Shown: one piece after another, positions 1 through 16,870 of the stretch
Numbering within the stretch: the stretch's first letter is position 1
How the letters are laid out: every line of letters begins with the position of its first letter
Assembly (NCBI GenBank): GCA_041750675.1
Contig: JBGSYY010000408.1
Location: 1 to 20,468 of the forward strand
Origin: Isosphaeraceae bacterium
GTDB lineage: Bacteria > Planctomycetota > Planctomycetia > Isosphaerales > Isosphaeraceae
Direction of reading: 5' to 3'
DNA: 20,468 bases
Translations under genes and position numbers: made by a program
The notes under the pieces: generated by a model
Databases searched by the model: none
What the model saw: the letters and a program-made list of their open reading frames with translations, nothing else
What the model was told of the DNA's origin: nothing

Positions 1-21
1 TTCAACACCCCCCGGCCGACT

Positions 22-131
22 TCCCGGCGACCATACCGGCGGGGCCACACCCGTTCCCATCCCGAACACGGCCGTTAAGCCCGCCGGGCCTATGATAGTG
101 CCTCTGGCGCGAAAGTCGGTTATCGCCGGGT
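22..131 (+). rRNA. rrf: 5S ribosomal RNA
   Basis: Sequence cccggcgaccataccggcggggccacacccgttcccatcccgaacacggccgttaagcccgccgggcc...tcgccggg aligns along its length to bacterial 5S rRNA (E. coli rrf). Helix I closes with cccggcga/tcgccggg. The internal loop C/loop E region (ccgaacacgg...gtta) is conserved. It is followed directly by a terminator. Confidence 0.85.
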
Positions 132-143
132 CCTATACCCACA

Positions 144-192
144 AGCCGCCCCGGCTTCACCATTCCAAGGTGAGGCCGGGGCGGCTTTGTTT
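144..192 (+). terminator. Rho-independent terminator of the rRNA operon
   Basis: Perfect 12-bp GC-rich stem agccgccccggc / gccggggcggct, extendable through tcacc/ggtga, with loop attccaa. It is followed immediately by a T-run, tttgttt (186-192), 12 nt downstream of the 5S rRNA. Confidence 0.7.
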
Positions 193-288
193 GCGCGCTT
201 GACACAGATGGCTTGTTCTCCGGCTACAAAAAAAGCTCTCTCCGCCGCATCTGTGGCGAAGAGAGCCTTCATTGAGCCATTTCATGAC

Positions 289-1395: not shown

Positions 1396-1882
1396 GAAAC
1401 GGCCTCCTGGTTGAAATCTCCACCCTTTCTGAAAAGACGACTCGACGCAGGTGGATCGATCGGACGAGTCGGGAATGATGAGCTATCATCAACGAGAACG
1501 AAGCGGACAAAATCAGACCTTGGGAGACGGACGACCGTCGGCCACGCGTCAACGACGCGGAGCACCACATGAGCCATAGGCTCCAGAGCCGTCATCGCGG
1601 CGGACCGAAGACCACTCGGACGCGCGGGGCTTGTCCCGCACCAAACGCCCAAGGGCCGCCGGACTCAACGCGATTCATGCAATGGAACGAAGTGGATTCC
1701 GTGGGCTACAGGGCGTCGATTCGCGCTGAACGCGTGCGCCGGACCGCCACGGTGAGGTGCAACCCCCCTCGTAACGTCCCTCTCACGCGGACAGGCCAGC
1801 CGTTCGTCCGTCTCCTTCCAGTCATCAATGAGCGAGATGTGTGCACATCCCGTTGAAGGTCGGCCGAGGCCGACCAACGGCG

Positions 1883-1957
1883 TGTTGTGGGCGGGAGTCG
1901 AACCCGCGACACCCAGGTTAATAACCTGGTGCTCTATCCAATTGAGCTACCACGAAC
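1883..1957 (-). tRNA. tRNA-like gene with an anomalous anticodon loop (uuAUUaa, anticodon AUU) and a bulged acceptor stem; possibly a pseudo-tRNA
   Basis: The reverse complement shows a canonical D-arm (ta gctc aattggata gagc), anticodon stem ccagg/cctgg with the 7-nt loop ttattaa, variable region gtgtc, T-arm gcggg ttcgact cccgc, and 3' acceptor ccacaac + a. The 5' acceptor gttCgtgg needs one bulged C to pair. The anticodon AUU is not used by normal bacterial tRNAs. Confidence 0.45.
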
Positions 1958-2067
1958 CGACTCCGCCCCGGTTTTCATCCCCTTCACGGAACACGCCCCA
2001 CCGATCGCCAAAAGAGACGAGGCGAGCGCGCCGCGGGCCTGACGAAGCCAGCCGCTTGCTTGCAAAG

Positions 2068-2139
2068 AGACGCCGGTGGGAGTCGAACCCACTTCAGACC
2101 GGTTTGCAGCCGGCCGCCTGACCGTCTGGCTCCAGCGTC
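2068..2139 (-). tRNA. tRNA-Cys (GCA)
   Basis: Reverse complement gacgctg ga gcc agacggtca ggc g gccgg cuGCAaa ccggt ctgaa gtggg ttcgact cccac cggcgtc t. The 7-bp acceptor includes one G.U pair, the T-loop is TTCGA, and the discriminator is U73 as expected for Cys. Position 8 is G, which is atypical. Confidence 0.75.
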
Positions 2140-2157
2140 GTTTCGATCGAAAATCCA

Positions 2158-2228
2158 TGTCCCCGCCAGGAGTCGAACCTGGCCCTCGACCTTCGCAGGG
2201 TCGTGTGCATCCGACACACCTCGAGGAC
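2158..2228 (-). tRNA. tRNA-Arg (GCG)
   Basis: Reverse complement gtcctcg ag gtgt gtcggat gcac a cgacc cuGCGaa ggtcg aggg ccagg ttcgact cctgg cggggac a. The cloverleaf is complete and the discriminator is A73. The anticodon GCG, with G34 in the CGN box, is unusual for bacteria. Confidence 0.7.
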
Positions 2229-2252
2229 GTCGGCAAAACCAACCACCGTCAA

Positions 2253-2325
2253 TGCCCTCGCCAGGAATCGAACCTGGTCTACGGCGTTCGAAGCGCCGCG
2301 TGCGACTCCGGCACACTCCAAGGGC
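2253..2325 (-). tRNA. tRNA-Arg (UCG)
   Basis: Reverse complement gcccttg ga gtgt gccggagtc gcac g cggcg cuUCGaa cgccg taga ccagg ttcgatt cctgg cgagggc a. The D-stem gtgt/gcac is the same as in the neighbouring Arg gene. Confidence 0.7.
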
Positions 2326-2350
2326 GTTTCCTTCCATATAGAGGACTCAG

Positions 2351-2420
2351 CCGGGACGCGAGGATTCGAACCTCGTAGACGGGTTTTGGAGGCCCGCGGC
2401 TCTCCCAAGAGCACATCCCG
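2351..2420 (-). tRNA. tRNA-Trp (CCA)
   Basis: Reverse complement cgggatg t gctc ttggga gagc c gcggg(c) cuCCAaa (a)cccgt cta cgagg ttcgaat cctcg cgtcccg g. The anticodon loop cuCCAaa and discriminator G73 fit Trp. There is a C.A mismatch at positions 31-39 and the D-region is short. Confidence 0.65.
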
Positions 2421-2444
2421 AATCGTCATTGAGCTGTCAAAAGG

Positions 2445-2532
2445 CGGAGGGCGGGGGATTCGAACCCCCACGCCCGCGAACGGGCGCACTCGCTAGCAAC
2501 GAGGCCCGGCCAGCCGTATCCGGCTACCCTCC
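2445..2532 (-). tRNA. tRNA-Ser (GCU), type II with long variable arm
   Basis: 88 nt. Reverse complement ggagggt ag ccgg atacggctgg ccgg g cctcg uuGCUag cgagt gcgcccgttcgcgggcgt ggggg ttcgaat ccccc gccctcc g. It has a long variable stem-loop and G73. Confidence 0.8.
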
Positions 2533-2547
2533 GTAAGCGAACAGAAG

Positions 2548-2618
2548 TGGACCGCCGGGGAGTCGAACCCCGATTTCCGGGTTGCAAGACCGGTGTCTTT
2601 CCCTTGGACCAGCAGCCC
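2548..2618 (-). tRNA. tRNA-Ala (UGC)
   Basis: Reverse complement gggctgc tg gtcc aagggaaa gaca ccgg(t) cuUGCaa (c)ccgg aaat cgggg ttcgact ccccg gcggtcc a. The acceptor carries G3:U70, the Ala identity pair, and the discriminator is A73. Confidence 0.7.
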
Positions 2619-2652
2619 ATCGAACCAAAACCTCCAGCGCGAAAAAGGGGAG

Positions 2653-2725
2653 TCATCCCGGCAGGACTCGAACCTGCGATCTCCTGTTTGTAAGACAGGG
2701 GCCTTCGCCTCTAGACGACGGGACG
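2653..2725 (-). tRNA. tRNA-Val (UAC)
   Basis: Reverse complement cgtcccg tc gtct agaggcga aggc c cctgt cuUACaa acagg agat cgcagg ttcgagt cctgc cgggatg a. U8 and A73 are present. Confidence 0.8.
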
Positions 2726-2751
2726 AGTGAGGCAGCAGCAACAAGCGCGAA

Positions 2752-2819
2752 TCCCAGGCCCCGGTATCGATCCGGGCGGCCAGGCTCATGAGGCCCGGCG
2801 GAGCACCTGCTCGCCTGGA
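2752..2819 (-). tRNA. degenerate tRNA-like element with a CAU anticodon loop (Met/initiator-like remnant?)
   Basis: 68 nt: tccaggc|gagc aggt gctc|c|gccgggc cuCAUga gcctggc|cg|cccgg atcgata ccggg|gcctggg|a. The acceptor pairs well apart from U1.G72, and the anticodon stem is 7 bp. It lacks nucleotides 8-9, has a 2-nt variable region, and carries a non-canonical T-loop (ATCGATA). Confidence 0.35.
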
Positions 2820-2841
2820 GAGCAGCGAAGTGGTGAGAAAG

Positions 2842-2929
2842 TCGCCGGGGGGAGGGTCGAACTCCCACGCCCGCTGGTGTGGGCACGAGTTTCTGAGACT
2901 CGCGCGTCTGCCTGTTCCGCCACCCGGCG
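2842..2929 (-). tRNA. tRNA-Leu (CAG), type II
   Basis: 88 nt. Reverse complement cgccggg tg gcgg aacaggcagac gcg cgagt cuCAGaa actcg tgcccacaccagcgggcgt gggag ttcgacc ctccc cccggcg a. Strong similarity to canonical bacterial tRNA-Leu (tggcggaa…agacgcg), with A73. Confidence 0.85.
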
Positions 2930-2958
2930 ATCATTCGAGAACCAAGGCAAAAGTCGAG

Positions 2959-3033
2959 CGCCCCCGGTGGGATTTGAACCCACGGCCTTCTCCTCGACAG
3001 GGAGACGAGCACTCCGGACTGCTCCACGAGGGC
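2959..3033 (-). tRNA. tRNA-Asp (GUC)
   Basis: Reverse complement gccctcg tg gagc agtccggagt gctc g tctcc cuGUCga ggaga aggcc gtggg ttcaaat cccac cgggggc g. It has G73. Confidence 0.8.
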
Positions 3034-3059
3034 GACACACGGCTTCGGACACCAGACAG

Positions 3060-3143
3060 CGGAAGGAGAGGGAGTCGAACCCTCAAGGCTCATCGCTCGG
3101 TCGTTTTCGAAACGACTGCCGTCACCCATCGGCTTGCCCTTCC
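3060..3143 (-). tRNA. tRNA-Ser (CGA), type II
   Basis: 84 nt. Reverse complement ggaaggg ca agcc gatgggtgac ggc a gtcgt uuCGAaa acgac cgagcgatgagccttg aggg ttcgact ccctc tccttcc g. It has a long variable arm and G73. Confidence 0.75.
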
Positions 3144-3150
3144 CAGAAAG

Positions 3151-3225
3151 CTCCGGCGGCAGGAATCGAACCTGCGGCAACCCGGTTAACAGCCGGTCGC
3201 CCGTACCAGCACAAGCCCCGCCGGA
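3151..3225 (-). tRNA. tRNA-Asn (GUU)
   Basis: Reverse complement tccggcg gg gctt gtgctggta cggg c gaccgg cuGUUaa ccgggt tg ccgcagg→ T-arm gcagg ttcgatt cctgc cgccgga g. It has the classic cuGUUaa loop and G73. Confidence 0.7.
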
Positions 3226-3242
3226 AAAGCACAACGAAACAG

Positions 3243-3315
3243 TCGGGGCGGCCGGATTCGAACCGGCGGTCTCCTGCTCCCGAAGCAGGCGGATTTCCAG
3301 GCTCTCCCACACCCC
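3243..3315 (-). tRNA. tRNA-Pro (CGG)
   Basis: Reverse complement cggggtg tg ggag agcctggaa atcc g cctgc uuCGGga gcagg agac cgccgg→ T-arm gccgg ttcgaat ccggc cgccccg a. It has C1:G72 and A73, both Pro-typical, and an AGCCTGG D-loop. Confidence 0.8.
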
Positions 3316-3391
3316 GAATCCAATCGTGCTGATTGCTGGATGTTGAGACAAAATCGTCACCCGTGACTCACAATTCAGCAACCCCAAGAAA

Positions 3392-3463
3392 AGTGCCCAG
3401 CGGGATTCGAACCCGCGCTTCCGCCATGGCAAGGCGGCAGGCCAACCGCTACCTCATGGGCAC
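3392..3463 (-). tRNA. tRNA-Gly (GCC)
   Basis: Reverse complement gtgccca tg aggt agcggttgg cct g ccgcc uuGCCau ggcgg aagc gcggg ttcgaat cccgc tgggcac t. It has U73, which is Gly-typical. Confidence 0.8.
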
Positions 3464-3501
3464 TTTTGTGGATGCGACATATTGTCAAAGAATCGGACGA
3501 G

Positions 3502-3573
3502 AGCACCGGGCGGGCCTCGAACCCGCGTCTCCGCGTTACGAAAGCGGAATCCTGCCCATTGGACGACCAGTGC
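3502..3573 (-). tRNA. tRNA-Thr (CGU)
   Basis: Reverse complement gcactgg tc gtcc aatgggca ggat tccgc(t) uuCGUaa (c)gcgga gac gcggg ttcgagg cccgc ccggtgc t. There is a U.C mismatch at positions 31-39. Confidence 0.7.
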
Positions 3574-3597
3574 AACCATCTCGGTGAATCTTCCGAA

Positions 3598-3670
3598 TGG
3601 GACCCGAGGGACTCGAACCCTCACCACCCTGGTTAAGAGCCAGGTATGCTGCCGCTAGCACCTGAGTCCC
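3598..3670 (-). tRNA. tRNA-Lys (CUU)
   Basis: Reverse complement gggactc ag gtgc tagcggca gcat a cctgg cuCUUaa ccagg gtggt gaggg ttcgagt ccctc gggtccc a. It has A73. Position 8 is A. Confidence 0.75.
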
Positions 3671-3700
3671 CTTTCATCCGATCTCTGTCCTTCATGAAAG

Positions 3701-3772
3701 TCGGCCCGGGAGGAGTCGAACCTCCGCCTGGCGGTTATCGGCCGCCGGTTCTGCCGTTAAACCACAGGCCGG
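3701..3772 (-). tRNA. tRNA-Ile (GAU)
   Basis: Reverse complement cggcctg tg gttt aacggcag aacc ggcgg ccGAUaa ccgcc aggc ggagg ttcgact cctcc cgggccg a. It has A73. Position 33 is C. Confidence 0.7.
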
Positions 3773-3808
3773 ACGATCAAACGTCGGCGCGCAGCGGGAG
3801 CGCGGAAG

Positions 3809-3880
3809 TGGGTCGGGTGGCGCTCGAATCCACGTCTGCGGCTTTTCAGGCCGCCGCTAGACCATCTCAGCTACCGACCC
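3809..3880 (-). tRNA. tRNA-Phe (GAA)
   Basis: Reverse complement gggtcgg ta gct gagatggtct agc g gcggc cuGAAaa gccgc agac gtgga ttcgagc gccac ccgaccc a. It has A73. There is an A.G mismatch at positions 53-61. Confidence 0.7.
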
Positions 3881-4243: not shown

Positions 4244-6802
4244 TCAGGGCTGACCGGCCGACGCGGGCTGGCCTGCCGGTACGGGTTCCAGCGCGACCTC
4301 AAACGCCTCATCCAGCATCTCGGGAAAGTGAAAACGAAGCTGCGAGCGAACTTCCTCCGGGATGTCCTCAATGTCGGCCTCGTTCGCCTTGGGCAAGATG
4401 ATCTCGGTGATCCCCGCTCGGTGCGCTCCCAGAACCTTCTCCTTCACGCCGCCAATCGGCAGAACCCGGCCGCGGAGCGTGATTTCCCCCGTCATCGCCA
4501 CATCTCGACGCACCGGCCGACCCGACATCGCCGATGCCAGCGCGGTCGCAATCGCCACGCCCGCCGATGGTCCGTCCTTGGGAATCGCCCCGGCCGGAAC
4601 ATGGATATGCACCTCAATCGATCCCAGCCGATCACGTGCAATTTTCAAGTCGCTGGCGTGAGTGGCGGCATACGTCAGCGCCGCGCGGGCCGATTCCTTC
4701 ATCACATCGCCGAGCTGCCCGGTCAGAATAAGGGCCACCTGTCCCCAGCCGGTCGCTTGCGTAATCGTCTCGGCCGTTGGCGGAGGGGGCAGGGGGGATT
4801 CCAGTCGGCGGATGGCCGCCTCGACGAACATGATGTCGCCGCCCGCCGGCGTGTAATACATCCCCGTTGCCACCCCAATCTCATTCACTTCACCGATCCG
4901 CTCAGGATGCACCCGTGGCCGACCCAGTAGCTCACGTACGTCGGCCGGCTCGATCCGCGCGTCCACCTTTTCGTCCGACGCAAGCTTCCGCGCCAGCTTC
5001 CGCGTGACCGCGCCGATCTGCCGCTCCAGTTGACGCACCCCCGCCTCGCGCGTGTACTGGCTCACGATCGTCATTACGGCGTCGTCGCTGAACACGATCT
5101 TGTGGTCCGATAGCCCTGCTTCCTCGACCTGTCGCGGTATCAAATACGACTTGGCGATCTCCGCCTTTTCCCGCTCCGTGTAACCGGCGAAATCAACCAC
5201 CTCCATGCGGTCGAGCAACGGCCCCGGAATGTTCTGCAGGAAATTCGCCGTGGCGATGAATAAGACCTCGCTCAAATCAAACGGTATGTTCAGATAGTGA
5301 TCCGTAAACGTATCGTTCTGTGCGGGATCAAGAACCTCAAGCAACGCGCTCGCCGGATCGCCCTGAAACGAGACCCCAAGCTTATCGACCTCGTCAAGCA
5401 GGAAGACCGGATTCTTCGTCCCCACTTGCTTCATTCCTTGGATGATCCGTCCCGGCATCGCCCCCACATAGGTCCGGCGGTGGCCTCGAATATCCGCTTC
5501 ATCGCGCACGCCACCTAAAGCCGCACGAACATACTTACGCCCCAACGAGCGAGCAATCGACTTCGCGATCGACGTTTTGCCCACACCCGGAGGACCCACG
5601 AACAGCAAAATCGGCCCCCGCGCCATGGCCCGCGCCTTCACCTCCGCCTGGTCGGTAATCATCTTTCCAGGTTCATTGTTCGAACCCTTCAGCGAGGGAT
5701 TCGCGGTGTCGCGCGTCGCCATCAGACGGTCAAGCGGGCACTCGCCATTGCGGTCCACCTCTTCCGCCAGTTGCCGGGCCCGAAGCTGCCGCACCGCCAG
5801 GAATTCCAGTATCCGGTCTTTTACGTCCTGCAGGCCGTAGTGGTCCTCATCCAGCACCTTCGCTGCGTGCCGCAGGTCGAGATTGTCGTCCGACCTCGCG
5901 TTCCAGGGCAGTTCGGCAATCCACTCCAGATACGTGCGGATGACCTGGGCCTCCATCGACTCCCGCCCCGCTCGCTCCAGCCGCGCCAGCTCACGCTCGA
6001 CCTCGACCCGGGCCTCGCTCGGCAGCTCCAGCTTGGTCAATTTCTCCCGCAACGCCACGATCTCACGATTCTGGTCGTCCTCCCCCAGCTCCTTCTGGAT
6101 CGCCTTCAACTGCTCGCGCAAAAACATCTCTCGCTGACGCTGGCCCAGCTCTTCCTGCACTTGCGACTTAATCTCCTCCTGCGCGACGAGCATACCGATC
6201 TTTCGCTGAACCTGGACCAGCACCCGACGCAGCCGCTCCTCGACTCCGAGCGTCTCCAGCAGTACCTGCTTCTCATCCACCGGCAGCTCGATATACCCCG
6301 CCACGAGATCCGCGAATGGACCCGGCTCGACGACCGAATCCATCACGTTGTGCAGCACCTCCTCCGGCATATCCCGCAGTTGACCCAGATCCATCGCACG
6401 CTCGCGTGTTTCGCGATACAGCGCCGCGAAGGCGGCGTCCGCTTCATCCGCGGGCGGAATCTCGGCCACCGGGCTGACGTCTGCTCGCAAATACCCCTCG
6501 CTACTGTTGTACTGTGCGGCCGTCGCCCGCGCCTCACCCTGCAGCAGAAGCTGGACGCCGCCCAGCCCACGCTGAATCTGCCCGATCCTCGCGATGACGC
6601 CCATCCCATAAAGCTGGTCCGGGGTCGGCTCCTCGGCCGTGTCACGCTGCGCAACGGCGAAGATCAGGCCATTCCCCTTCTTGACCGCCGCCTCGATCGC
6701 CCTCAACGTCCCAGGCCGTCCCACACCGATCGGTGAGGTCACTCCCGGAAAAATCACCGAACCACGCAGCGGCAAAACCGGGAGCGTTTGTTGCTCAAAC
6801 AT
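4244..6802 (-). CDS. lon: ATP-dependent Lon protease (endopeptidase La)
   Basis: 852-aa ORF with the Lon N-terminal domain ([42 protein letters not shown]…), an AAA+ module with Walker A ([15 protein letters not shown]) and Walker B (LLDEVDK), and a C-terminal protease domain with the catalytic Ser motif ([19 protein letters not shown]). Confidence 0.95.
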
Positions 6803-7044
6803 CGCGTCGTCTCTCCGATCAGCGATCCCAGCACCCGCCGCCCGAGCGTTCCGCGCGCGGTGAAGCGATCAGACCTAGAATTGTCTCTCCTTCTATCCGT
6901 ATTCCACGGCAGCCGAAAAGTCCAGCACGCAACCCGCCTCAACCCATGCTCTCTCATCGCCTGCACACTCATTCTCCCCTCACGCGTGAACTGCCGGATC
7001 GGATAACATCTGAAAGTCCCGCACGCCTTCTCGAGGCCATCCGT

Positions 7045-8478
7045 ATGCCGTTCTCGATAACCGCAGGACTTATCCTCGCCTTCTGCCTTGCAGCCGACGG
7101 AGGCACTCCCTCCTTCCACGCCGGAGCTTCGGCCGTCGAGATCACACCACCCGTCGGCTGGCGTCTCGCCGGCAGTTTCCAGGACGAGCCGAGTTCCCGC
7201 GTCCGCGATCCTCTCCACGCTCGTGCGCTGGTTCTCCAGCAGGGCGAGCAACGCATGGCCCTTGTCATCTGCGACCTGACTGGCCTACCCCGCGAAGTCG
7301 CCCATCGCGCGCGACGTCTTGCCTCCCAACGCACGGGCATTCCCGCCGATCAAATCGTCATCGCCGCGACCCACACCCACGGCGCACCGCTCTTCTACGA
7401 TCACCGCCGCGAGCGATTCCACATACAAAACCTCAAGCAACATGGTCGTGATCCTGCCGAGCCGACACTCGACTACGCCGCCTTGCTCGTCGACCGCTGC
7501 GCCGAGGCCGTCGTCCTCGCCCAACGTACCGCAGCCCCCGCACGAATCCGATCCGGATCGATCGACGTCCCCGGCCTCGCCTTCAACCGGCGCTTCAAGA
7601 TGCGCGACGGCTCGGTGCGCTTCAACCCCGGCAAGCTCAACCCCGAGATCGTCGAGCCTGTGGGTCCCGTCGATCCCACCCTGCGCGTCGTTCGCTTCGA
7701 CCATCTCGCCGACGATCGGCCCATCGCCGCCCTCAACGTCTTCGCCATCCACGTCGCCGTCCACGGAGGTCCCGAAATTTCCGCGGATTTTCCTGCCGTG
7801 ATCGAAAAACGCCTCCAAGCCCGGTTCGGCCCCAACTTCGTCGCCCTCTTCGGCGAGGGAACCGCCGGCGACGTCAATCATATCGACGTCCAATCCGCCT
7901 CCCTCCAGCCCCCCGAAACCGAGCCAGCCCGGATCGGCAACGCCTTGGCAGAGGCCTGGCTGGCCCTGGAACCGAATCTCCACACCGCCGACAGCCCTTC
8001 GCTGGCCGTCCGCTCCGCTACGATCCAAGCCCCTCTCCGCCCCGCAAGCCCCGACGATGGTCGTCGTGCCCGGCACATCCTCGATCAGGAGAACCCGCCC
8101 GCCGAGTTCCTCGAGATTGTCGAGGCGCACCGAATTCTCGATGTCCTCGACGCCCGTCGCATCCATGGCGAAACCCTACCGATGGACGTCACGACGGTTC
8201 GGCTCGACGACTCCACGGCCCTCGTCTGTTTACCACACGAAATCTTCGTCGACTTGGGCCAGGCAATCGCCCGCGAGTCCCCCTTCCCGAACACGCTCGT
8301 CATCACCCTCTGCAACGGTGTCGACTTCTACGTCCCCACCGCCCATGCGTACGCGGAGGGTGGCTACGAGGTTGTCAACTCGCGAGTCGAGCGGGGTGCC
8401 GGCGAGGCACTTGTGGAAGCTGCCCTCACACAACTCCGCGCCCTGGCGGCGAGTCGTCCGTCAGGACCAGGCGGTTGA
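7045..8478 (+). CDS. secreted hydrolase, neutral/alkaline ceramidase-like N-terminal domain family (putative)
   Basis: The ORF runs to the stop at 8478. The ATG at 7045 gives an N-terminal signal-peptide-like segment, MPFSITAGLILAFCLAADGG. The extension upstream to 6733 overlaps the lon start on the opposite strand and is Pro/Arg-rich junk. Motifs VEITPPVGWRLAG and AATHTHGAP resemble the neutral-ceramidase-like hydrolase family. The assignment comes from motif memory only. Confidence 0.5.
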   Translation: MPFSITAGLILAFCLAADGGTPSFHAGASAVEITPPVGWRLAGSFQDEPSSRVRDPLHARALVLQQGEQRMALVICDLTGLPREVAHRARRLASQRTGIPADQIVIAATHTHGAPLFYDHRRERFHIQNLKQHGRDPAEPTLDYAALLVDRCAEAVVLAQRTAAPARIRSGSIDVPGLAFNRRFKMRDGSVRFNPGKLNPEIVEPVGPVDPTLRVVRFDHLADDRPIAALNVFAIHVAVHGGPEISADFPAVIEKRLQARFGPNFVALFGEGTAGDVNHIDVQSASLQPPETEPARIGNALAEAWLALEPNLHTADSPSLAVRSATIQAPLRPASPDDGRRARHILDQENPPAEFLEIVEAHRILDVLDARRIHGETLPMDVTTVRLDDSTALVCLPHEIFVDLGQAIARESPFPNTLVITLCNGVDFYVPTAHAYAEGGYEVVNSRVERGAGEALVEAALTQLRALAASRPSGPGG

Positions 8479-8544
8479 AAGTCACTCCCGGCTAGGCCAT
8501 GCATTGACGTTTCGATGGGTCGTCCATGATCGGCGTTCTCACCC

Positions 8545-8760
8545 GTCATCCCCGCGCAGAAATGCGTTGATCCAGCCGGCCTCGATCGATCATAGAGGCT
8601 CAGTTTGTCCGGTTCCGTTGGTGTCATCCCCGCGCAGGCGGTGATCCAGAGGTCAACGAACTGACCGACAAAGCCGTCCCGACTGAAGTCATCCCCGCGC
8701 AGGCGGGGATCCAGAGTGTTCGCCGCTCTCTCGCCGGATCACCGCCTGCGCGGGGATGAC
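8545..8760. repeat. Cluster of 29-bp palindromic repeats matching the type I-E CRISPR repeat consensus; degenerate mini-array or REP-like, with no cas genes in the window
   Basis: Two near-identical direct copies: 8623-8651 gtcatccccgcgcaggcggTgatccagag and 8688-8716 gtcatccccgcgcaggcggggatccagag, separated by a 36-bp unique spacer. One degenerate direct copy lies upstream at 8545-8575 (the first 15 nt and the gatccag tail are conserved). One inverted degenerate copy lies at 8736-8760. The repeat has an internal 8-bp stem, atccccgc/gcggggat, and fits the I-E-like consensus GTnnTCCCCGCnnnnGCGGGGATnnnnnn. Confidence 0.5.
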
Positions 8761-9069
8761 TCGTGGTAAGGCGGAGACGAACCGAACAACCTGAGGCTCA
8801 ATCGCCTTGGCTCGCTCCGAACGGCAGAGTCAACACCACGCCGCCACGACCGCGGTCAACCACCCACGCCACACACGCAGGAAAAATGATAAGGCGGCCA
8901 AACCACGCTCGCGACCCATCTTCAAGCTGGTCTAGCAACACCAGATCGGATTCGAGTATGATTCCAGTATGTAGAGCTTTGAATTCGATGGCACGCCTCC
9001 CGTGGCCATTCCGAGTGATCGCCTGTTCGTGATACCCGATTCTCCAAGGCGATCCACCCAGGATCTCCC

Positions 9070-9444
9070 ATGAACTTCGCCACACTGGTCCTCTTTGCCT
9101 TGCTCGCACCAGTGTCGTCGCTTCATACCCCTACGGATTTGTCGATCGCGCCGGCAACCCGGACCTCTCGGGTCGATTCATCCGCCAACAGCATTTCGAT
9201 CCCGTTGCAGGTCTCTGGCCGAGCCACCTCGAAAGACACGGACGCCCCCGAGCCCACAAGCCCCGTCGATCTCTGCGAGAGGCTGTCTCTGGACGAGCCG
9301 GGCGAGCCGGAGTCACAGTGCCTTGCCCCTCTGAGCCACGACCATTCGCGCGTTCTCCGATTCGCCATGCACCGGAGCACGGCGGGTCGCCGCGACGCTT
9401 GCACGCCTGCCCGCCGGCAGGGAATCCTCTGCTTACGCTGTTGA
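9070..9444 (+). CDS. hypothetical small secreted protein (weak call)
   Basis: 124-aa ORF opening with a signal-peptide-like hydrophobic segment, MNFATLVLFALLAPVSSLH. It lies in an otherwise gene-poor 1.3-kb interval. Codon bias is weaker than in the core genes and there is no clear RBS. Confidence 0.25.
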   Translation: MNFATLVLFALLAPVSSLHTPTDLSIAPATRTSRVDSSANSISIPLQVSGRATSKDTDAPEPTSPVDLCERLSLDEPGEPESQCLAPLSHDHSRVLRFAMHRSTAGRRDACTPARRQGILCLRC

Positions 9445-9818
9445 GCCTGCGCCGAGGCAGGTCGGTCTGAAACCCTGGCTGCGGTACATCACGCCTGCGC
9501 GGTCTACATCAACTTCGACGAACCAAGCCGCCATTCCCTGGCATAGGTACGCAGCCGAGTCGCCACTCGGCCCTCGTTTCCCGTGCGGGGTTGGTCCTGC
9601 CCCAAATCCCGCCTTTCTTCCGCAAATGGTCTCTGTGGCGACTCGCTGGCTTGCCCCTTCAGGCAGCAGCGACCCCTGACCACGGAAATCGCCACCGCGA
9701 CACCGTCGGTCGATCTCACTCGTCGGCATTCGCGAGCGAGGCTCTCTATCCAATGAAGCCTCCGGGTCGATCGATCTCCTCCTCCACACGATGATCTCCT
9801 GCACAAGGCGACCAAACC

Positions 9819-11735
9819 ATGCACACCGTATCAGAACCGGCCCCCCGCATTGCGCCGGCGTCCCCGCCGATCCCCGGACGCCCCGATCTCATCGCAGGCT
9901 TCCTCGTCTTCTTGATCGCGTTGCCCCTCTGCCTGGGGATCGCCCTGGCCAGCGGCTACCCCGCGGTGGCAGGCATCCTCGCCGCCGTGGTCGGCGGCCT
10001 CCTCACACCCTGGATCAGCGATTCGGCGTTGACAATCAAGGGTCCCGCGGCAGGGCTGATCGTCATCGCCCTCGGGGCCATCAACGAATTCTCAGCGATC
10101 TATGGGCCTGACCGCGCCTATCCACTCGCTCTGGGCGTCGGCGTGGCTGCGGGATTGATCCAGATCCTGTTCGGGCTGAGTAAGTCCGGAAAGCTCGGCG
10201 AATTCTTCCCCACGACCGTCGTTCATGGAATGCTCGCCGCAATCGGCGTCATCATCATGGCCAAGCAGATTCATGTGACGCTCGGCGTCATGGATACCCA
10301 CGGCGAACCGCTGGAACTCATCCGGGAAATCCCCAACTCGATCGCGCGGCTCAATCCCGAGATCGCCCTGATCGGTGGGATCAGCCTGCTGATCCTGTTT
10401 GTCATGCCCATGATAAAACACCCGCTGATCAGAAAAATTCCATCCCCACTCGTCGTCATCCTGGTCGCCGTGCCGATGGGACTCTACTTCGGCCTCACCG
10501 AGGAGCATACCTACTCCTTCGGTGGACACGACTACTCGCTCGGGGAACGCTTCCTCGTGCCCGTGCCGCAAAACCTCCTCAAGGCGATCACCTTCCCGGA
10601 TTTCTCAGGACTTCGCACCCTCGTCGCCTGGAAATGGGTGGCGCTGTTCGCGCTGATCGGATCGCTCGAGTCCATCCTCAGCGCCAAGGCGATTGACCTG
10701 ATGGACCCGTGGCAGCGAAAGACGAACCTCAATCGTGATCTCATCGCGATCGGTATCGGCAACACCGTTGCGGCCGGCATCGGCGGTTTTCCCATGATCT
10801 CCGAAATCGTGCGCAGCAAGGCCGCCGTCGACAATGGAGCGCGCACCCGGTTCACCAACCTCTTCCACGGCTTGTTCTTGCTCGGCTTCGTCGCACTCGT
10901 CCCAGGCCTGCTCCACCGTATCCCGCTCGCCGCCCTTAGTGCCATGCTTGTCTACACGGGCGCTCGGCTGGCCTCGCCACGCGAGTTCCAAAACGTCTCG
11001 CGCATTGGCAAAGAGCAATTGCTCATCTTTGTCATCACCCTGGTCGGAGTTCTCGCGACCGACCTCCTGGTCGGAGTCGGCATCGGCATCGCTGCCAAGC
11101 TGGCGATTCACGTCCTCAACGGCGTGCCGATCCTCTCCCTCTTCCGGCCCTACCTCGACATCGAGCCCCTCGATGACAACACCTCGCTGATTCGCGCTCG
11201 CCGATCGGCGGTCTTCAGCAACTGGATCCCATTCAAGAGTCAGATCGAGCAGATCGGACTGGTCCAGCATACGAACCTGGTGATCGACCTCTCCGAGGCA
11301 AAATTCGTCGACCATCATGTCATGGAAAAGCTGCACGAGCTTCAGGTCGATTTCGAGAACCAGGGCCTCTCGCTCGAACTCGTCGGCCTCGAGACGCACA
11401 AGAAACTCTCCAGCCACGAACACGCCGCACGACGCCAAGGCTACGATCGGTCACGCAGGATCACCGTGATCATCGATGCAGCCGCGGGCGGGCCGCTCTG
11501 CGAGGAACTCGTCGCCCAGGGTGCCGACCGCTACACCCTCACGCCCTGCCTCGCCGTCGGCGGGACCGTCGAAAACGGCTCCTTACCTTCCTCCAACGGA
11601 GTCCAGTGGGTCCGGTGCGAGATCCACGTCCCCACCGCAAACGTCGATCCCGTCATGAGGCGAGTCCGCCGCGCGCTCCGTGAGGATCGCGTCCACAGCG
11701 TCTCGGCCGAGACAATCGAACGCATCGAAAGCTGA
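9819..11735 (+). CDS. SulP-family inorganic anion (sulfate/bicarbonate) transporter with STAS domain and a C-terminal PII-like domain
   Basis: 638 aa. There are multiple TM helices with SulP/SLC26 signatures (…GFPMISEIVRSKAAVDNGARTRFTNLFHGLFLLGFVAL…). A STAS domain follows (…TNLVIDLSEAKFVDHHVMEKLHELQVDFENQGLSLELVGLETHKK). The last 92 aa or so (nt 11457-11735) show a beta-alpha-beta-beta-alpha-beta pattern like GlnB/PII proteins: ITVIIDAA…LCEELVAQGA…YTLTPCLAVGG…VQWVRCEIHVP…VDPVMRRVRRAL…VHSVSAETIERIES. Confidence 0.85.
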   Translation: MHTVSEPAPRIAPASPPIPGRPDLIAGFLVFLIALPLCLGIALASGYPAVAGILAAVVGGLLTPWISDSALTIKGPAAGLIVIALGAINEFSAIYGPDRAYPLALGVGVAAGLIQILFGLSKSGKLGEFFPTTVVHGMLAAIGVIIMAKQIHVTLGVMDTHGEPLELIREIPNSIARLNPEIALIGGISLLILFVMPMIKHPLIRKIPSPLVVILVAVPMGLYFGLTEEHTYSFGGHDYSLGERFLVPVPQNLLKAITFPDFSGLRTLVAWKWVALFALIGSLESILSAKAIDLMDPWQRKTNLNRDLIAIGIGNTVAAGIGGFPMISEIVRSKAAVDNGARTRFTNLFHGLFLLGFVALVPGLLHRIPLAALSAMLVYTGARLASPREFQNVSRIGKEQLLIFVITLVGVLATDLLVGVGIGIAAKLAIHVLNGVPILSLFRPYLDIEPLDDNTSLIRARRSAVFSNWIPFKSQIEQIGLVQHTNLVIDLSEAKFVDHHVMEKLHELQVDFENQGLSLELVGLETHKKLSSHEHAARRQGYDRSRRITVIIDAAAGGPLCEELVAQGADRYTLTPCLAVGGTVENGSLPSSNGVQWVRCEIHVPTANVDPVMRRVRRALREDRVHSVSAETIERIES

Positions 11736-11745
11736 GACCCACCGC

Positions 11746-12285
11746 TCAGTTCTCACCAGCCACCCGTTGGGATTCGTCGGATCCAACCGCCGCCGATCCC
11801 AACGGCGTGGACTTGTGGATCGTCTGCGCGACCACGCAGTACCGTTCCGTCAGCTCAAGCAGCTTCGCGACCTGGGCTTCGTCGGCGTCGGTGTCGAGTT
11901 GGTACCGCAGTCGAATCGCCGTGAAGCCGACCGGCGTCGTCTTGTCCACTCCCAGCGTGCCCCGGAAGTCGAGGTCGCCCTCGGCCTCGATCTTCCCGCC
12001 CCGCAGCGTGATTCCCAGTGCAGTGGCGACGGCCGTCAGGGTCACCCCGGCACACCCGACAAGTGCCTGGAGAAGCATGTCACCGGGGCAGGCTCGTGTG
12101 CCGTCACCCCCGGCGGCTGGATGCAATCCGGCTTCGACCGGGCCAATCTCGGTGGTCACTCGGCAGCCGGGATAGGTCGTGTCGAGGCTCCCTTCCGCCT
12201 TCAGGGTCCGAACCGCCTCCTCCGGGCGTTCACGATAGAGCGCTTTCCAGGGGGCTTGCCGCGCACGCAATTCCTCGCCGTTCAT
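11746..12285 (-). CDS. osmC: OsmC/Ohr family peroxiredoxin-like protein
   Basis: OsmC-like core: …CPGDMLLQALVGCAGVTLTAVATALGITL…GFTAIRLRYQLDTDADEAQVAKLLELTERYCVVAQTI. The start is placed at the ATG at 12285 (protein begins MNGEEL…), which is preceded by a strong GAGGAG Shine-Dalgarno 9 nt upstream. An in-frame ATG at 12324 would add 13 aa. Confidence 0.8.
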   Translation of the reverse strand: MNGEELRARQAPWKALYRERPEEAVRTLKAEGSLDTTYPGCRVTTEIGPVEAGLHPAAGGDGTRACPGDMLLQALVGCAGVTLTAVATALGITLRGGKIEAEGDLDFRGTLGVDKTTPVGFTAIRLRYQLDTDADEAQVAKLLELTERYCVVAQTIHKSTPLGSAAVGSDESQRVAGEN

Positions 12286-12556
12286 CGCATCACGCTCCTC
12301 TGTCCTCAATACCTCACGGCGCATCCCACTCGACCGACTAAAATCATCCTAGCCGACTCCAAGCCGCACTCGCGATAAGACCGCGGTCGATCAACCTGCG
12401 TTCTTCCCAGGGCGCTTACACGCGACCCGACAAGCTCGTTAGAATCAGGAGTCGAGTTCAGTCGCGGCGGCCCGGACCGATCCACGGCAAGACGTTGCCG
12501 GCTCCGCGCACAATCGGGTAAATCGGCGCTGCCCGTGTACGACGGCCAGAGGATGG

Positions 12557-13966
12557 ATGAACCCCCGCATGGCCGACCGTTACCTCAGCCGCCTCGACGC
12601 CCTCTACGGGCGCTTGAACTACGAACGCTCCGGCATGCCTCGTTCCAGCGACCTGCGCCTGGGCCGGATGCGGCGGTTCCTACGGCACCTGGGCGATCCC
12701 CACCGCAACCTTCGCATCATTCACGTCGCCGGCACAAAGGGCAAAGGCTCGACAGCCACCCTCATCGCCGCCGCACTCTCCGGCTCCGGCGTACGCACCG
12801 GATTGTTCACCTCTCCCCACCTCCATCGCCTCGAAGAACGGTTCCAGATCGACGGCCGCCCCATCGAGCCAGACGCACTCAGCGACCTCATCGACGTCAT
12901 CTGGCCCGCCGTTCAGGCGATGGACGACCTCGACGCCGATCCCTCGCCCCGCCGGCCGCTCACCTTCTTCGAGATCACCACCGCGATGGGCCTGGTCCAC
13001 TTCGCCCGCCAAAAGACCGGCGCTGTCGTGCTCGAAGTCGGCCTGGGCGGACGCCTCGATTCGACCAACGTCGTTCGCCCCCTCGTCTCCGTCATCACCT
13101 CGATCTCCTACGACCACACCCGCCAACTCGGCAACACACTCAGCGCGATCGCCTCCGAAAAGGCGGGAATCCTCAAACGCCAAGGCGTCGCTGTCAGCGG
13201 AGTCGCCGGCCTCGATGCGCGCGCGGCGATTCAATCCGTCGCCAAGCAACGCCAGGTCCGGCTCCACGCCCTCGGTGTCGATTTCCAGACCCGCTATCAA
13301 GCGCCGAGCTTCCCCGTCGCCACGCCCACCCCAGGAACCCTCGAAGTCCAAACCTGGCGACGTCACTGGGGCCCGCTCTCCGTCCCCTTGCTCGGCTCTC
13401 ACCAGGCGCGAAACGCCGCCGTCGCCCTCGCCACCCTCGATGCCCTCGCCGACCAGGAACCCTCCCTCAACCTCGACGAGCCGACCGTCGCCCACGCCTG
13501 GCGCAGCCTGAGCATCCCCGCCCGCGTCGAACTCCTGCCGGGTTCGCCCAATCTCCTCCTGATCGACGGCGCACACAACAACGCCTCCGCACGCGCCCTG
13601 GCCGACACCCTGCTCACTCACTTCCCCCCCTCGCGCCGACTCCTCATCTTCGGCACCACCCGCGACAAGGACCTCCTCGGCCAGCTCCGCTGGCTCCGCC
13701 CGCTCTTCCATGTCTTCATCGCCACCCGCTATCGCGAAAATCCACGCGCCGTCATGCCCGAGGAGATCACCGCCGCCGCCTCAGAGCTGGGATTCCCTTC
13801 CATCCACGCCACCGATAGCCCCGCCGAAGCGCTCCAATTGGCCAGGCAGCTCGCCCAACCACCCGACTCAATCTGCGTCACAGGTTCCCTATTCCTGGCC
13901 GCCGAAACCCGTGCCCTCGCCCTGGGCCTGCCGCCGGTCCCTCGGCCCACCGCCGTTGGCGTCTGA
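12557..13966 (+). CDS. folC: bifunctional folylpolyglutamate synthase / dihydrofolate synthase (Mur ligase family)
   Basis: 469 aa. It has the P-loop HVAGTKGKGST, the …SPHLHRLEERFQIDG… motif, the FolC middle-domain motif …ITSISYDHTRQLGNTLSAIASEKAGIL…, and the C-terminal Mur-ligase domain. Confidence 0.9.
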   Translation: MNPRMADRYLSRLDALYGRLNYERSGMPRSSDLRLGRMRRFLRHLGDPHRNLRIIHVAGTKGKGSTATLIAAALSGSGVRTGLFTSPHLHRLEERFQIDGRPIEPDALSDLIDVIWPAVQAMDDLDADPSPRRPLTFFEITTAMGLVHFARQKTGAVVLEVGLGGRLDSTNVVRPLVSVITSISYDHTRQLGNTLSAIASEKAGILKRQGVAVSGVAGLDARAAIQSVAKQRQVRLHALGVDFQTRYQAPSFPVATPTPGTLEVQTWRRHWGPLSVPLLGSHQARNAAVALATLDALADQEPSLNLDEPTVAHAWRSLSIPARVELLPGSPNLLLIDGAHNNASARALADTLLTHFPPSRRLLIFGTTRDKDLLGQLRWLRPLFHVFIATRYRENPRAVMPEEITAAASELGFPSIHATDSPAEALQLARQLAQPPDSICVTGSLFLAAETRALALGLPPVPRPTAVGV

Positions 13967-14020: not shown

Positions 14021-14467
14021 ATGTCTGGTTCAACCTGGCTTCAAATCGGTGCCGTCATGGGCTTTCTCTCGGTCGCACTGGGTGCGTTCGGCGCACATGG
14101 ACTGGACGCGCGGATCAAGGCCGAGCCGGCCGCCGCCACCGCCGCCGACCCAGGCGCTCGCCGTCCCGTCACCCCCGAACGCCGTCTCGAAGTCTTCGAA
14201 ACCGGCGCTCGTTACCACGCCATTCACGCCCTGGCTCTCGTAGCCTTGGGCCTGCTCGCGCTAGTCCACGCCGCACCAGGCCTCGCCGTCCAGGTCGCCG
14301 GCTGGTCCTTCCTGGTCGGAATCCTCTTGTTTTCCGGTAGCCTCTACGCCCTGGGCTTCTCCGGAATCGGCCTCCTGGGCGCGATCACCCCGTTCGGCGG
14401 AGTCGCTTTCCTGATCGGCTGGATCGCGATGGCCGTGGCCGCGGGAGGCGGCCGGAGCGTCGGCTGA
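14021..14467 (+). CDS. DUF423 (YgdD/TMEM256-like) small membrane protein
   Basis: 148 aa with four predicted TM segments. It has DUF423 motifs GAFGAHGL … FETGARYHAIHALAL … GSLYALGFSG. An SD-like GGGAG lies 11 nt upstream. A roughly 35-aa Ala/Pro-rich segment is inserted after the first helix. Confidence 0.8.
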   Translation: MSGSTWLQIGAVMGFLSVALGAFGAHGLDARIKAEPAAATAADPGARRPVTPERRLEVFETGARYHAIHALALVALGLLALVHAAPGLAVQVAGWSFLVGILLFSGSLYALGFSGIGLLGAITPFGGVAFLIGWIAMAVAAGGGRSVG

Positions 14468-15108: not shown

Positions 15109-15840
15109 TCAGCCCTTCTTTCTACGTTTGCCCTTGGGCTTGGCCGCCAATCTTGTCGGCGACGCTTCCACATGCGGAACTCTCGCCACGACCCCACGCA
15201 AGTCCATCAGAAAACCAAAAACCTGGATCTCCCAATCGCGGGAATGAGGAGGTCTCAGATAACGATCAGCATAAATTCGACCGACCAATTCCGCGAGCGG
15301 CTTCGTCCCGTTCGTGCCAACCATCGTCCGAAACGGATGGCAAGCCGTCCCACGAAGACCAGCCACCGAAGTTTCACCGGCCATGGGAATCCCTCGCGGA
15401 TCATCACGTCTGAGCTGCGCATAGTCCAGGATGTCCGCTCGCAACTCGTTGATGATCACCTCATGATGGGCCGAATCCTCAGACCGGTCCTGACCGTATT
15501 GAGCAAATCCGGATGCGTATCGGTGCGCGCCGCAATCAAAGTGATCAATGATGTAGATATACTTGATCTCATGAAGCGCCACGGCCAGCTCGAGGTGGTC
15601 GTAAAACGCGTTCCGACATGCCGCAAACGCGTCTGAATCGCTCAAACGCGGCCGCTTCAGGCTCACGGACGGACCCGCCGAGACGAACTGGTCATACCGG
15701 TTGGTCAGATTCTCCCCTTCCATGAACGCAACTACATTATCCAGCAGCCTCAAATCCATGCACGTGACCAGCAGCACATTTTTCGAGGCGAGCGGAAGCG
15801 CCCCGGTCGCCTGGTCCAGAATGTCGATTTGCTTGTTCAT
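15109..15840 (-). CDS. beta-class carbonic anhydrase-like protein (Rv1284-like clade) with C-terminal extension
   Basis: The start is set at the ATG at 15840 (MNKQIDILDQ…), with GAGGGA 6 nt upstream. The upstream part of the listed 300-aa ORF is an Arg-rich artefact. It has the beta-CA zinc-ligand motifs CxDxR (LLVTCMDLRLL) and HxxCG (IIDHFDCGA), which resemble the CMDAR / HTDCG motifs of Rv1284-type beta-CAs. A roughly 80-aa Lys-rich C-terminal tail follows. Confidence 0.55.
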   Translation of the reverse strand: MNKQIDILDQATGALPLASKNVLLVTCMDLRLLDNVVAFMEGENLTNRYDQFVSAGPSVSLKRPRLSDSDAFAACRNAFYDHLELAVALHEIKYIYIIDHFDCGAHRYASGFAQYGQDRSEDSAHHEVIINELRADILDYAQLRRDDPRGIPMAGETSVAGLRGTACHPFRTMVGTNGTKPLAELVGRIYADRYLRPPHSRDWEIQVFGFLMDLRGVVARVPHVEASPTRLAAKPKGKRRKKG

Positions 15841-15859
15841 TGTCCCTCGCCTTTCAGCT

Positions 15860-16870
15860 TCACGCCTTGCTCGCCTCAGAAAACGCCGAGTCGAACAAGC
15901 TCGCCGGCGCGTCGAAACCCATCGTTTTCTTGGTGAACGCACACGCCTCCGCCGCGCCGTACTCGCGCTCCATGCCAGGGTCTTCCCACTCAATCGAAAG
16001 CGGCCCGGCATAGCCGATGCTGTTCAACGCCCGGGCAATCCCGTCAAAATCCACCTGCCCACGCCCCGGCGAGCGGAAGTCCCACCCCCGACGTGGGTCG
16101 CCGAAGTTCAAATGACTGCCCAAAATGCCCGTCCGCCCGTTCAGCGTCCGTGCTGCGTCCTTCACGTGGACGTGATACATCCGATCCGGGAAATACCGGA
16201 TAAACTCCACCGGGTCCACCATCTGCCAGAGCAGGTGGCTGGGGTCGTAGTTGAAGCCGAATTCCTTGCGGCCGTCGAGCGCCTTGAGCGCCCGCTCCGC
16301 CGAATAAACGTCAAACGCGATCTCGGTCGGATGCACCTCCAGCCCAAACCGCACGCCTTCCGTCTTGAACACGTCCAGAATCGGATTCCAGCGGTCCGCC
16401 AAATCCTGATACCCCCGATCAATCATCGCGTCGGAAACCGGCGGAAACGAATACAGCAGGTGCCAGATCGAACTGCCCGTGAATCCATTGACAATCTGCA
16501 CTCCCAATTTCGCCGCCGCCCGCGCCGTGTCCATCATCTCCTGCGCGGCCCGCTTCTGAACGCCCTTCGGTTCGCCGTCGCCCCACACGTGATCGGGCAA
16601 GATCACCTTGTGCCGCTCGTCGATCAGATCGCACACCGCCTGCCCCGCCAGATGGTTCGAGATCGCCCAGCACTTCAGGCCATACTTCCCCAGCATCGCC
16701 TTGCGACCTTCGCAATACCCCGGCTCCTTCAGTGCCTGCTGCACATTGAAGTGATCGCCCCAGCACGGCAGCTCGATCCCGTCGTAGCCCCATTCGCTGG
16801 CCTTCTTGCAAAGCGTCTCTAACGTCATGTCGGCCCACTGGCCGGTAAAGAGCGTCACGGGGCGCGCCAC
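15860..16870 (-). CDS. sugar phosphate isomerase/epimerase (xylose isomerase-like TIM barrel) family protein
   Basis: TIM-barrel AP-endonuclease 2/xylose-isomerase-like profile: …[26 protein letters not shown]…[11 protein letters not shown]…GFTGSSIW…FGLEVHPTE…YHVHVKD…IEWED…. The start is set at the GTG at 16870 ([12 protein letters not shown]…), which has a strong GAAGGAGAG SD 8 nt upstream. The longer ORF up to 17257 overlaps the divergent HAD gene. Confidence 0.8.

Follow-up and report, generated by a model that had tools for sequence, protein, structure and literature searches.

What is the C-terminal extension of the anion transporter encoded at positions 9819–11735 of a 20,468-nt stretch of Isosphaeraceae DNA (contig JBGSYY010000408.1 of assembly GCA_041750675.1; henceforth the window), and what could it be doing there? 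A first-pass annotation, made from the letters alone, had read the gene as a SulP/STAS transporter covalently joined to a PII-like domain of the GlnB/SbtB/CPII type and had proposed an inorganic-carbon or bicarbonate role. We confirmed that it encodes a SulP/SLC26 anion transporter followed by a probable STAS domain, a short linker and a C-terminal PII-like domain of the SbtB type. Taking all the evidence together, we consider it fairly probable that typical members of this family are bicarbonate transporters with a nucleotide-sensing tail, from which the window copy has diverged. In public databases such proteins are named only 'SulP family inorganic anion transporter', and the fusion is visible in precomputed Pfam annotations.

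Domain organization of the protein

The transport core matched the Pfam family PF00916 (Sulfate_transp) over residues 23–407 (E=1.9e-58), and a full-length AlphaFold2 model (predicted local distance difference test, pLDDT, 86.8) placed membrane helices at residues 21–433. Pfam matches to STAS and STAS_2 were weak and under their cut-offs (E~0.005, 17 bits, residues 465–526); in the full-length model residues 446–527 form an alternating beta/alpha domain. The linker, about 13 residues long (529–541), was modelled with low confidence (pLDDT <50), and it is exactly here that tail-less relatives of the protein terminate (...SARR). From NCBIfam only generic models responded, all of them far under their cut-offs (TIGR00815 sulP, 151 bits; DauA, 140 bits; BicA, 118 bits). 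The solved chain nearest to the core was 6ki1 (E=1.3e-20), which we take to be BicA, followed by SLC26Dg (5da0), with prestin and SLC26A6 as further relatives in the PDB.

A Pfam scan of the tail, which had been suggested as a check, aligned the P-II family PF00543 over nearly its full length (profile positions 3–98 of 102, tail residues 13–102, protein residues 547–636), while the score of 22.6 bits remained under the 25-bit cut-off. In an alignment of 38 diverse homologous tails (A1), all 38 matched PF00543, with a best E of 7e-16, and 22 also matched DUF3240. When the window was left out and a hidden Markov model (HMM) was made from 37 other tails, the window tail scored 65.4 bits against it (E=1.7e-18). 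When the A1 profile was compared to all PDB chains, it aligned over the full length with TTHA0516 (2cz4; E=2.5e-18) and with SbtB7001 of Cyanobium PCC7001 (6mm2; E=1.6e-7). Synechocystis SbtB followed at ~3e-5, and many canonical GlnB/GlnK PII proteins were matched at 1e-5 to 1e-3; CPII (5d4n, 5d4l) was reached at E~1 only.

Structure prediction gave the same answer. Modelled alone by AlphaFold2 with the A1 alignment, the tail reached a pLDDT of 86.6 and showed the order strand-helix-strand-disordered loop-strand-helix-strand. DSSP assignments in the full-length model (strands at residues 543–553, 571–577, 597–605 and 625–635, helices at 554–566 and 606–621, loop at 578–596) match the beta1-alpha1-beta2-(T-loop)-beta3-alpha2-beta4 order that the first-pass annotation had read from the translation. 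The stretch that it assigned to the domain, 11457–11735 (residues 547–638; nt 11457–11732), is right to within four codons, the domain beginning four codons earlier. It had also suggested comparing a predicted structure with SbtB and CPII, and both are indeed among the top matches: the best Foldseek matches in the PDB were 2cz4, SbtB (6mmo, 6mm2) and CPII (5d4p), with a probability of 1.00 and template modelling (TM) scores of 0.65–0.70, and TTHA0516, SbtB or CPII chains made up all but 5 of the 50 matches listed.

The GC content at third codon positions (GC3) is 0.83 in the tail and 0.80 in the rest of the gene, and a flat ~0.62–0.65 in the upstream intergenic DNA; the tail value is gene-like and therefore indicates that the tail is read in this frame. 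A frameshift masking a better tail was considered and rejected, as tblastn with the family consensus and the tails of three relatives found frame 3 only (11361/11424–11732).

The resemblance to PII could in principle be coincidental, the C-terminal extension being unrelated and just happening to show a ferredoxin-like beta-alpha-beta pattern, and the window tail taken alone, under the Pfam cut-off and with no PII match in the PDB by phmmer, might encourage such a view. However, its homology to the family, measured with the window left out, leads to PF00543 at 7e-16 and to 2cz4 at 2.5e-18, the spacing of the PII signature is exact in the family, and the fold matches are overwhelmingly PII-like proteins. 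Chance resemblance is refuted, its probability being practically nil, and the covalent joining of SulP/STAS to a PII-like domain is borne out by profile, fold and family evidence alike.

Position of the tail within the PII superfamily

On sequence grounds, the tail groups with SbtB and TTHA0516 and apart from CPII and classical GlnB. The earlier label needs correcting accordingly: the sequence type is that of SbtB/TTHA0516, and the CPII part fails at the profile level. The family carries the motifs G-A-S-G-Y-T ... C-x-G-A-G-R-R, in which the positions G568-x-x-G571-x-T573 ... G579-x-G581-R582 are 90–98% conserved among 105 tails. We take their spacing to be exactly that of G24/G27/T29/G35/G37/R38 in E. 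coli GlnB, residues that presumably line its ATP site. Canonical PII proteins also have a glycine-rich B-loop, T-G-x-x-G-D-G-K(-I-F), which helps to bind Mg-ATP/2-oxoglutarate. A glycine-rich B-loop between alpha2 and beta4 is absent both from the window and from the family consensus (...xxxxHxVTACVETVEV).

Two cysteines of the family deserve mention. C577 (nt 11547–11549), which closes beta2 ahead of the T-loop, is Cys in 101 of the 105 tails, and a second Cys, in the beta4 motif ACVETVEV, is found in 85 of 105 and is replaced by Ser629 (nt 11703–11705) in the window. By analogy with the redox hairpin of SbtB, these two positions might constitute a redox-sensitive pair.

A profile search covering all of 1.84 billion cluster representatives recovered 596 proteins at E<=1e-3, many of them free-standing proteins of ~100 amino acids (aa) with the same motifs. 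We looked up the gene neighbourhoods of four of these. P0142 lies directly after fragments of an Sbt_1 (SbtA-family) gene, P0145 directly after an Sbt_1 gene, and P0163 is the downstream member of a tandem PII-like pair that follows an Sbt_1 gene, unlike P0151, which follows a CBS-domain gene. Such a tandem arrangement, with two 101-aa SbtB-like genes behind one SbtA-family gene, is seen in L091 (1962–2610) and L092 (718–1366). In another protein of 342 aa (P0222), a membrane region that is Sbt_1-like by eye is apparently joined directly to the same PII-like domain; if P0222 is not an artefact of assembly or of a frameshift, the domain may have joined carbon transporters on more than one occasion.

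Distribution of the fusion and loss of the tail

The whole protein has thousands of SulP relatives. Surveying SulP homologues for the same C-terminal extension, as had been proposed, we found the tail, collinear, in 105 of the best 120 homologue clusters (57–67% identity), nearly all from Planctomycetota, and most of the tailed clusters already had a precomputed PF00543 match. A species-level scan with one genome per GTDB species yielded 80 loci, of which 51 have the fused form, 49 of them Planctomycetota by record title (among them Pirellulales, Planctomycetaceae, Isosphaeraceae, Schlesneria and the anammox genera Kuenenia and Scalindua). Far from being unusual, as the first-pass annotation had it, the fusion is found in most members of this SulP clade in the phylum. 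The only fused genes outside Planctomycetota among the 80 loci come from a Methylococcaceae bin (L026) and an Alphaproteobacteria bin (L084); horizontal transfer may explain them, or the contigs may have been mis-binned.

In a rough neighbour-joining tree of the core, planctomycete proteins with and without the tail are intermingled, and proteins that end at ...SARR are among the closest relatives of the window protein (72–75% core identity). The tail has evidently been lost repeatedly, repeated gain being less likely.

Association with DAB operons

In the closest full-length relative (P0002; loci L002/L003) and in a Pirellulales genome (L004), the sulP-PII gene closes a dab operon with the order dabA (PF10070, ~1040 aa), Proton_antipo_N/M (~460 aa), Proton_antipo_M (~485 aa) and sulP-PII, the junction to the latter being an 8-nt overlap or a 5-nt gap. 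Flanking sequence sufficed for a verdict at 50 fused loci, and at 32 of these dabA-dabB-dabB genes are directly adjacent on the same strand (25 under strict criteria, 6 with overlapping calls of open reading frames, ORFs, and 1 with dab genes downstream). The sulP-PII gene follows the operon in 31 of the 32 and precedes it in one. DabB1, DabB2 and DabA were the top three recurrent neighbour families, and the lower-ranked clusters appear to be antisense shadow ORFs of the dab genes, a two-component system and rarer families. A link between tail degeneracy and the absence of dab genes was considered and dropped, conserved and degenerate tails occurring in both contexts when HMM scores were inspected.

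Tail-less members of the clade are DAB-linked as well, in ~21 of 29 loci, including Nitrospirota, Acidobacteriota, Gamma- and Alphaproteobacteria, and in four phyla besides Planctomycetota altogether. In three Nitrospirales genomes a free-standing CPII orthologue of 111 aa (E=6e-32 to 5d4n) is found beside dabA, extending the CPII-DAB linkage to Nitrospirota. These orthologues are all on the minus strand (L068, 13053–13388; L071, 14772–15107; L077, 15419–15754), with a tail-less SulP ~1.4–3.8 kb away. No additional free-standing PII-like gene was found in any fused locus. Two PII branches have therefore been recruited to DAB/SulP loci, CPII as a free protein and the SbtB type fused to SulP in Planctomycetota.

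Because relatives of the protein sit in dabA-dabB operons and relatives of its tail follow sbtA genes, the inorganic-carbon role originally proposed is supported; the argument first given for it, from a nearby carbonic anhydrase, fails (see below).

Several features of these operons are worth recording in their own right. The planctomycete DAB operons combine a DabA of ~1040 aa with two separate antiporter-like subunits (L002, 909–6855; L004, 1974–7995; ~30 further loci). The characterised Halothiobacillus DAB system has a single DabB, and the version with two may be a distinct DAB subtype. A gene coding for HTH_17 and PTS_EIIA_2 domains recurs in DAB, SulP and SbtA contexts (L002, 106–828; L006, 1065–1763; L039, 18717–19424; L086, 4569–5264) and is a candidate for a dedicated transcription regulator. 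Upstream of dab/sulP-PII in L004, the opposite strand carries genes for an OmpR-type response regulator and a HAMP histidine kinase (1–1659, minus strand); homologues of one or both are also found upstream at 9 and 7 further loci, respectively, some of them without dab genes, and such regulator or kinase ORFs were seen in L009, L010, L014, L019 and L026–L029.

Divergence of the window copy

The core of the window protein is 64–74% identical to its relatives, the tail only 21–38%, giving a tail/core identity ratio of 0.39 that is the lowest among 69 sequences (family mean 0.60). By family HMM score the tail ranks 52 of 57. Its substitutions fall within the putative pocket (G571R, G579A and R582G), at positions that are otherwise kept: G579 is found in 96 of 105 tails (Ala in the window) and R582 in 95 of 105 (Gly in the window). 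The window copy is the only one with Arg at 571 and the only one with Arg at V635, and it has Ser at the largely conserved C629. The motif at the base of the T-loop, G-A-G-R-R in the family, has degenerated to A-V-G-G-T, and the C-terminus is shorter, without the terminal ...P-D-x-F of the family. The fold and the reading frame are retained.

We take G571, G579 and R582 to be the equivalents of G27, G35 and R38 of GlnB, and their loss therefore makes nucleotide sensing by the window protein doubtful. Judging from these replacements, sensing has probably been weakened or lost in this copy; more likely, the domain would now be a ligand-independent structural or autoinhibitory module, or else a domain on its way out, much as close relatives have repeatedly dropped theirs.

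A proposed mechanism and its alternatives

PII proteins are known to control transporters, SbtB gating SbtA and GlnK gating AmtB (summarised in PMC13249358). If the fusion works along the lines of SbtB on SbtA, the transporter of this clade would move bicarbonate, complementing the CO2-hydrating DAB pump, and the tail of typical members would bind adenine nucleotides in inter-subunit clefts. By the same analogy, energy or carbon status would decide whether the T-loop switches the transporter, or its STAS domain, off or on, and the fusion would fix the ratio of regulator to target at 1:1.

Several observations weigh against this picture. SLC26/SulP transporters form dimers, whereas PII proteins form trimers with their ligand sites in the clefts between subunits; a simple in-cis plug like that of SbtB is therefore not geometrically obvious, and this symmetry mismatch is the main unexplained point of the model. 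As a tentative way out, which we hold to be less likely than not, higher-order membrane assemblies may form, e.g. three dimers bridged by two PII trimers, perhaps together with DabAB, or this PII branch may signal without trimerising. The interleaving of fused and tail-less forms means that the tail is dispensable, and 17 fused loci, the window included, lack nearby dab genes. The transporter is also far from reaching the 880-bit cut-off of the BicA equivalog model NF050096, scoring 118 bits. As for the window copy itself, the nucleotide-pocket signature G-x-x-G-x-T / G-x-G-R is kept in the family and not here. Its tail reached 22.3–22.6 bits against PF00543 (cut-off 25, E=1.4e-4) and, searched alone against the PDB by phmmer, matched no PII protein; the tail and full-length models are monomer predictions that lean on the family alignment.

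How do other explanations fare? One is that the window tail is a decaying relic, drifting neutrally since the gene left a DAB operon and without a present function. It is the most divergent of 69 tails, carries unique substitutions at positions conserved to 90–95%, has lost the terminal ...P-D-x-F with a shortened C-terminus, comes from a window devoid of dab genes or remnants, and has close relatives (72–75% core identity) with no tail at all. Yet the 92 codons are still open in frame with a GC3 of 0.83, the hydrophobic alternation is kept in all four strands and both helices, the tail scores 65 bits against the family model, and the AlphaFold2 confidence is high, if alignment-driven; we find this account rather doubtful. 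It is unlikely, in our judgement, that the tethered domain mainly regulates DabA/DabB in trans as a counterpart of CPII, the SulP part serving mostly as membrane anchor and co-transporter. The co-operonic position with dabA-dabB-dabB of ~64% of the assessable fused genes would fit, as would the Nitrospirales with a tail-less SulP of the same clade and a true CPII directly beside dabA, and the want of an extra free-standing PII-like gene at every fused locus. On the other hand, some tails of the 17 dab-less fused loci are very conserved (L001, L006 and L008, 128–138 bits), the tail is SbtB-type by sequence and not CPII-type, at ~8 DAB-linked loci of Planctomycetota with a tail-less gene no PII partner lies within 10 kb, and the target of CPII is itself not established.

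The substrate could also be sulfate, dicarboxylate or another anion, with a tail that reports nitrogen or 2-oxoglutarate status like GlnB/GlnK. The best NCBIfam matches (generic sulP and DauA, both sub-threshold), the 'sulfate permease-like' source annotations and the matches of the profile to canonical PII all lean that way. Against them stand the DAB-operon linkage of the whole clade across five phyla, a tail nearer to SbtB/TTHA0516 than to GlnB and whose nearest free-standing relatives follow sbtA, a family consensus without the canonical B-loop, and a nearest solved transporter chain, 6ki1, that is presumably BicA. We consider this possibility very unlikely. A bicarbonate transporter with an SbtB-type sensory tail in typical members, and a diverged copy of it in the window, is the reading that we retain.

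Surroundings of the gene in the window

The features of the gene and of its neighbourhood are collected in the following table. The window shows no synteny with related loci beyond scattered ceramidase-like matches, and no Sbt_1 gene was found in it. A tblastn search of the 20-kb window for dab genes or remnants, with the L002 and L004 sequences of DabA, DabB1, DabB2 and the HTH_17-EIIA protein as queries, reached a best E of only ~0.4, and the idea that the 1.3-kb upstream gap is a decayed dab operon was excluded by the same search. The DNA upstream of the SulP-PII gene shows no recognisable sigma-70-like promoter. For a riboswitch or other RNA upstream, Rfam (gathering thresholds over the whole window, and an E-value scan of 8400–9900) returned a spurious palindrome match only. 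The gap holds a ~100-nt palindrome (8671–8774), which produced this spurious match, to mir-789, on both strands, and a 124-aa ORF (9070–9444) whose N-terminus is hydrophobic and signal-peptide-like by eye.

Features of the SulP-PII gene and of neighbouring DNA in the window (positions in nucleotides)
Feature	Position	Strand	Details and evidence
SulP-PII fusion gene, complete	9819..11735	+	single uninterrupted ORF, 638 aa + stop codon 11733-11735
SulP/SLC26 membrane transport core, residues ~21-433	9879..11117	+	PF00916, AlphaFold2 helices
Probable STAS domain, residues ~446-527	11154..11399	+	weak Pfam STAS/STAS_2, AlphaFold2 alternating strands/helices
Basic flexible linker, residues ~529-542, HEHAARRQGYDRSR	11403..11444	+	low pLDDT in AlphaFold2 full-length model
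PII-like (SbtB/TTHA0516-type) domain, residues 543-635	11445..11723	+	Pfam, family HMM, PDB profile, AlphaFold2, Foldseek
T-loop equivalent, residues 578-596	11550..11606	+	low-confidence loop between beta2 and beta3
Ceramidase-like gene	6733-8478	+	
~1.3-kb gap, no recognisable gene or RNA	~8479-9818		
OsmC gene, convergent	11746-12324	-	
FolC-like ligase	12557-13966	+	
DUF423	14021-14467	+	
Putative beta-carbonic-anhydrase-like ORF	15109-16011	-	borderline PF20393 Pro_CA_2

The last of these had been called an Rv1284-like beta-carbonic anhydrase and offered in support of a bicarbonate role. It lies on the opposite strand, with three unrelated genes (OsmC, FolC-like and DUF423) in between. 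Its sole database support is a match to PF20393 at 30.4 bits (cut-off 30), to which the motifs CxDxR (CMDLR) and HxxC (HFDCG) may be added by eye. The Rv1284-like label proved unsupported, no significant match being found in the PDB chain library, Rv1284 included. Nor does the ORF have a homologue in 85 related loci, and with neither homologue there nor PDB relative, we rejected it as functional evidence. Its annotated 5' end overlaps a neighbouring TIM-barrel gene, and the true start is probably internal.

Elsewhere in the window, ARAGORN predicts 18 tRNA genes within 2 kb (1882–3880, minus strand), 12 of which reach the Rfam gathering score. The array includes an unusual tRNA-Asn with anticodon ATT beside a normal GTT copy. 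A 5S rRNA gene is found at the very start of the contig (23–131, plus strand).

Relation to known systems and implications

Among characterised systems, SbtB-SbtA is like the fusion in fold and superfamily branch, in the shared motifs G-A-S-G-Y-T and G-x-G-(S/R)-R, and in having an inorganic-carbon transporter as the partner. It differs in that the PII protein is free-standing and the partner is the trimeric SbtA instead of a member of the dimeric SulP/SLC26 family. The CGPxGC redox hairpin at the C-terminus of Synechocystis SbtB is not seen in the tail family, which is usually encoded in a DAB operon and not in sbtAB, and whose hosts are mostly heterotrophic Planctomycetota, not cyanobacteria. 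The carboxysome-associated CPII of Thiomonas and Halothiobacillus (PDB 5d4l–5d4p) resembles the tail in its genetic tie to DAB-type pumps and is a good fold match, but it is a free-standing protein of a different PII branch by sequence, and bicarbonate-enhanced ADP binding is a feature of CPII. TTHA0516 from Thermus thermophilus (2cz4, a structural-genomics 'putative PII-like signaling protein') is the closest solved relative of the tail family; unlike the tail, it is free-standing, of ~119 aa, and uncharacterised, and a full-text literature search found no paper naming it.

On the transporter side, BicA, the cyanobacterial SulP-type Na+/bicarbonate transporter, belongs to the same superfamily and shares the core and STAS layout. 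It is not an orthologue of the window protein, however, and lacks a PII domain, its regulation being thought to proceed via STAS. SulP-carbonic anhydrase fusions and sulP-can operons, e.g. M. tuberculosis Rv3273 (PMC6458275), are a precedent for fusing or linking the SulP C-terminus to inorganic-carbon functions, except that the fused module is an enzyme and not a signalling domain. In GlnK-AmtB, as in the model proposed here, a PII protein blocks a transporter with its T-loop depending on nucleotide state (an analogy cited in PMC13249358), but the two are separate polypeptides and both trimers, the signal is nitrogen, and GlnK has the canonical B-loop and 2-oxoglutarate site.

In the full-text literature searched, neither a SulP-PII fusion nor a planctomycete DAB operon turned out to be described, although prior mention cannot be excluded. 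To our knowledge, the PII-like proteins of carbon uptake (SbtB, CPII) have so far been known as free-standing trimers from cyanobacteria and chemoautotrophs, and the regulation of SulP-type bicarbonate transporters such as BicA has not been settled. The fusion supplies structural and transport studies with a natural regulator-transporter pair of fixed stoichiometry, and its repeated loss, together with degenerate copies such as that of the window, provides natural controls for the role of the domain. It also poses the puzzle of reconciling dimer with trimer symmetry; a higher-order assembly or signalling without trimers, if true, would amount to a way of PII signalling that has not been described before. 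These loci link DAB, SulP and PII systems in a single operon and extend regulated carbon uptake to Planctomycetota, anammox bacteria included. If such an assembly, or signalling without trimers, proved true, mostly heterotrophic and anammox Planctomycetota would possess a three-part inorganic-carbon uptake module consisting of DAB, SulP and a tethered sensor.

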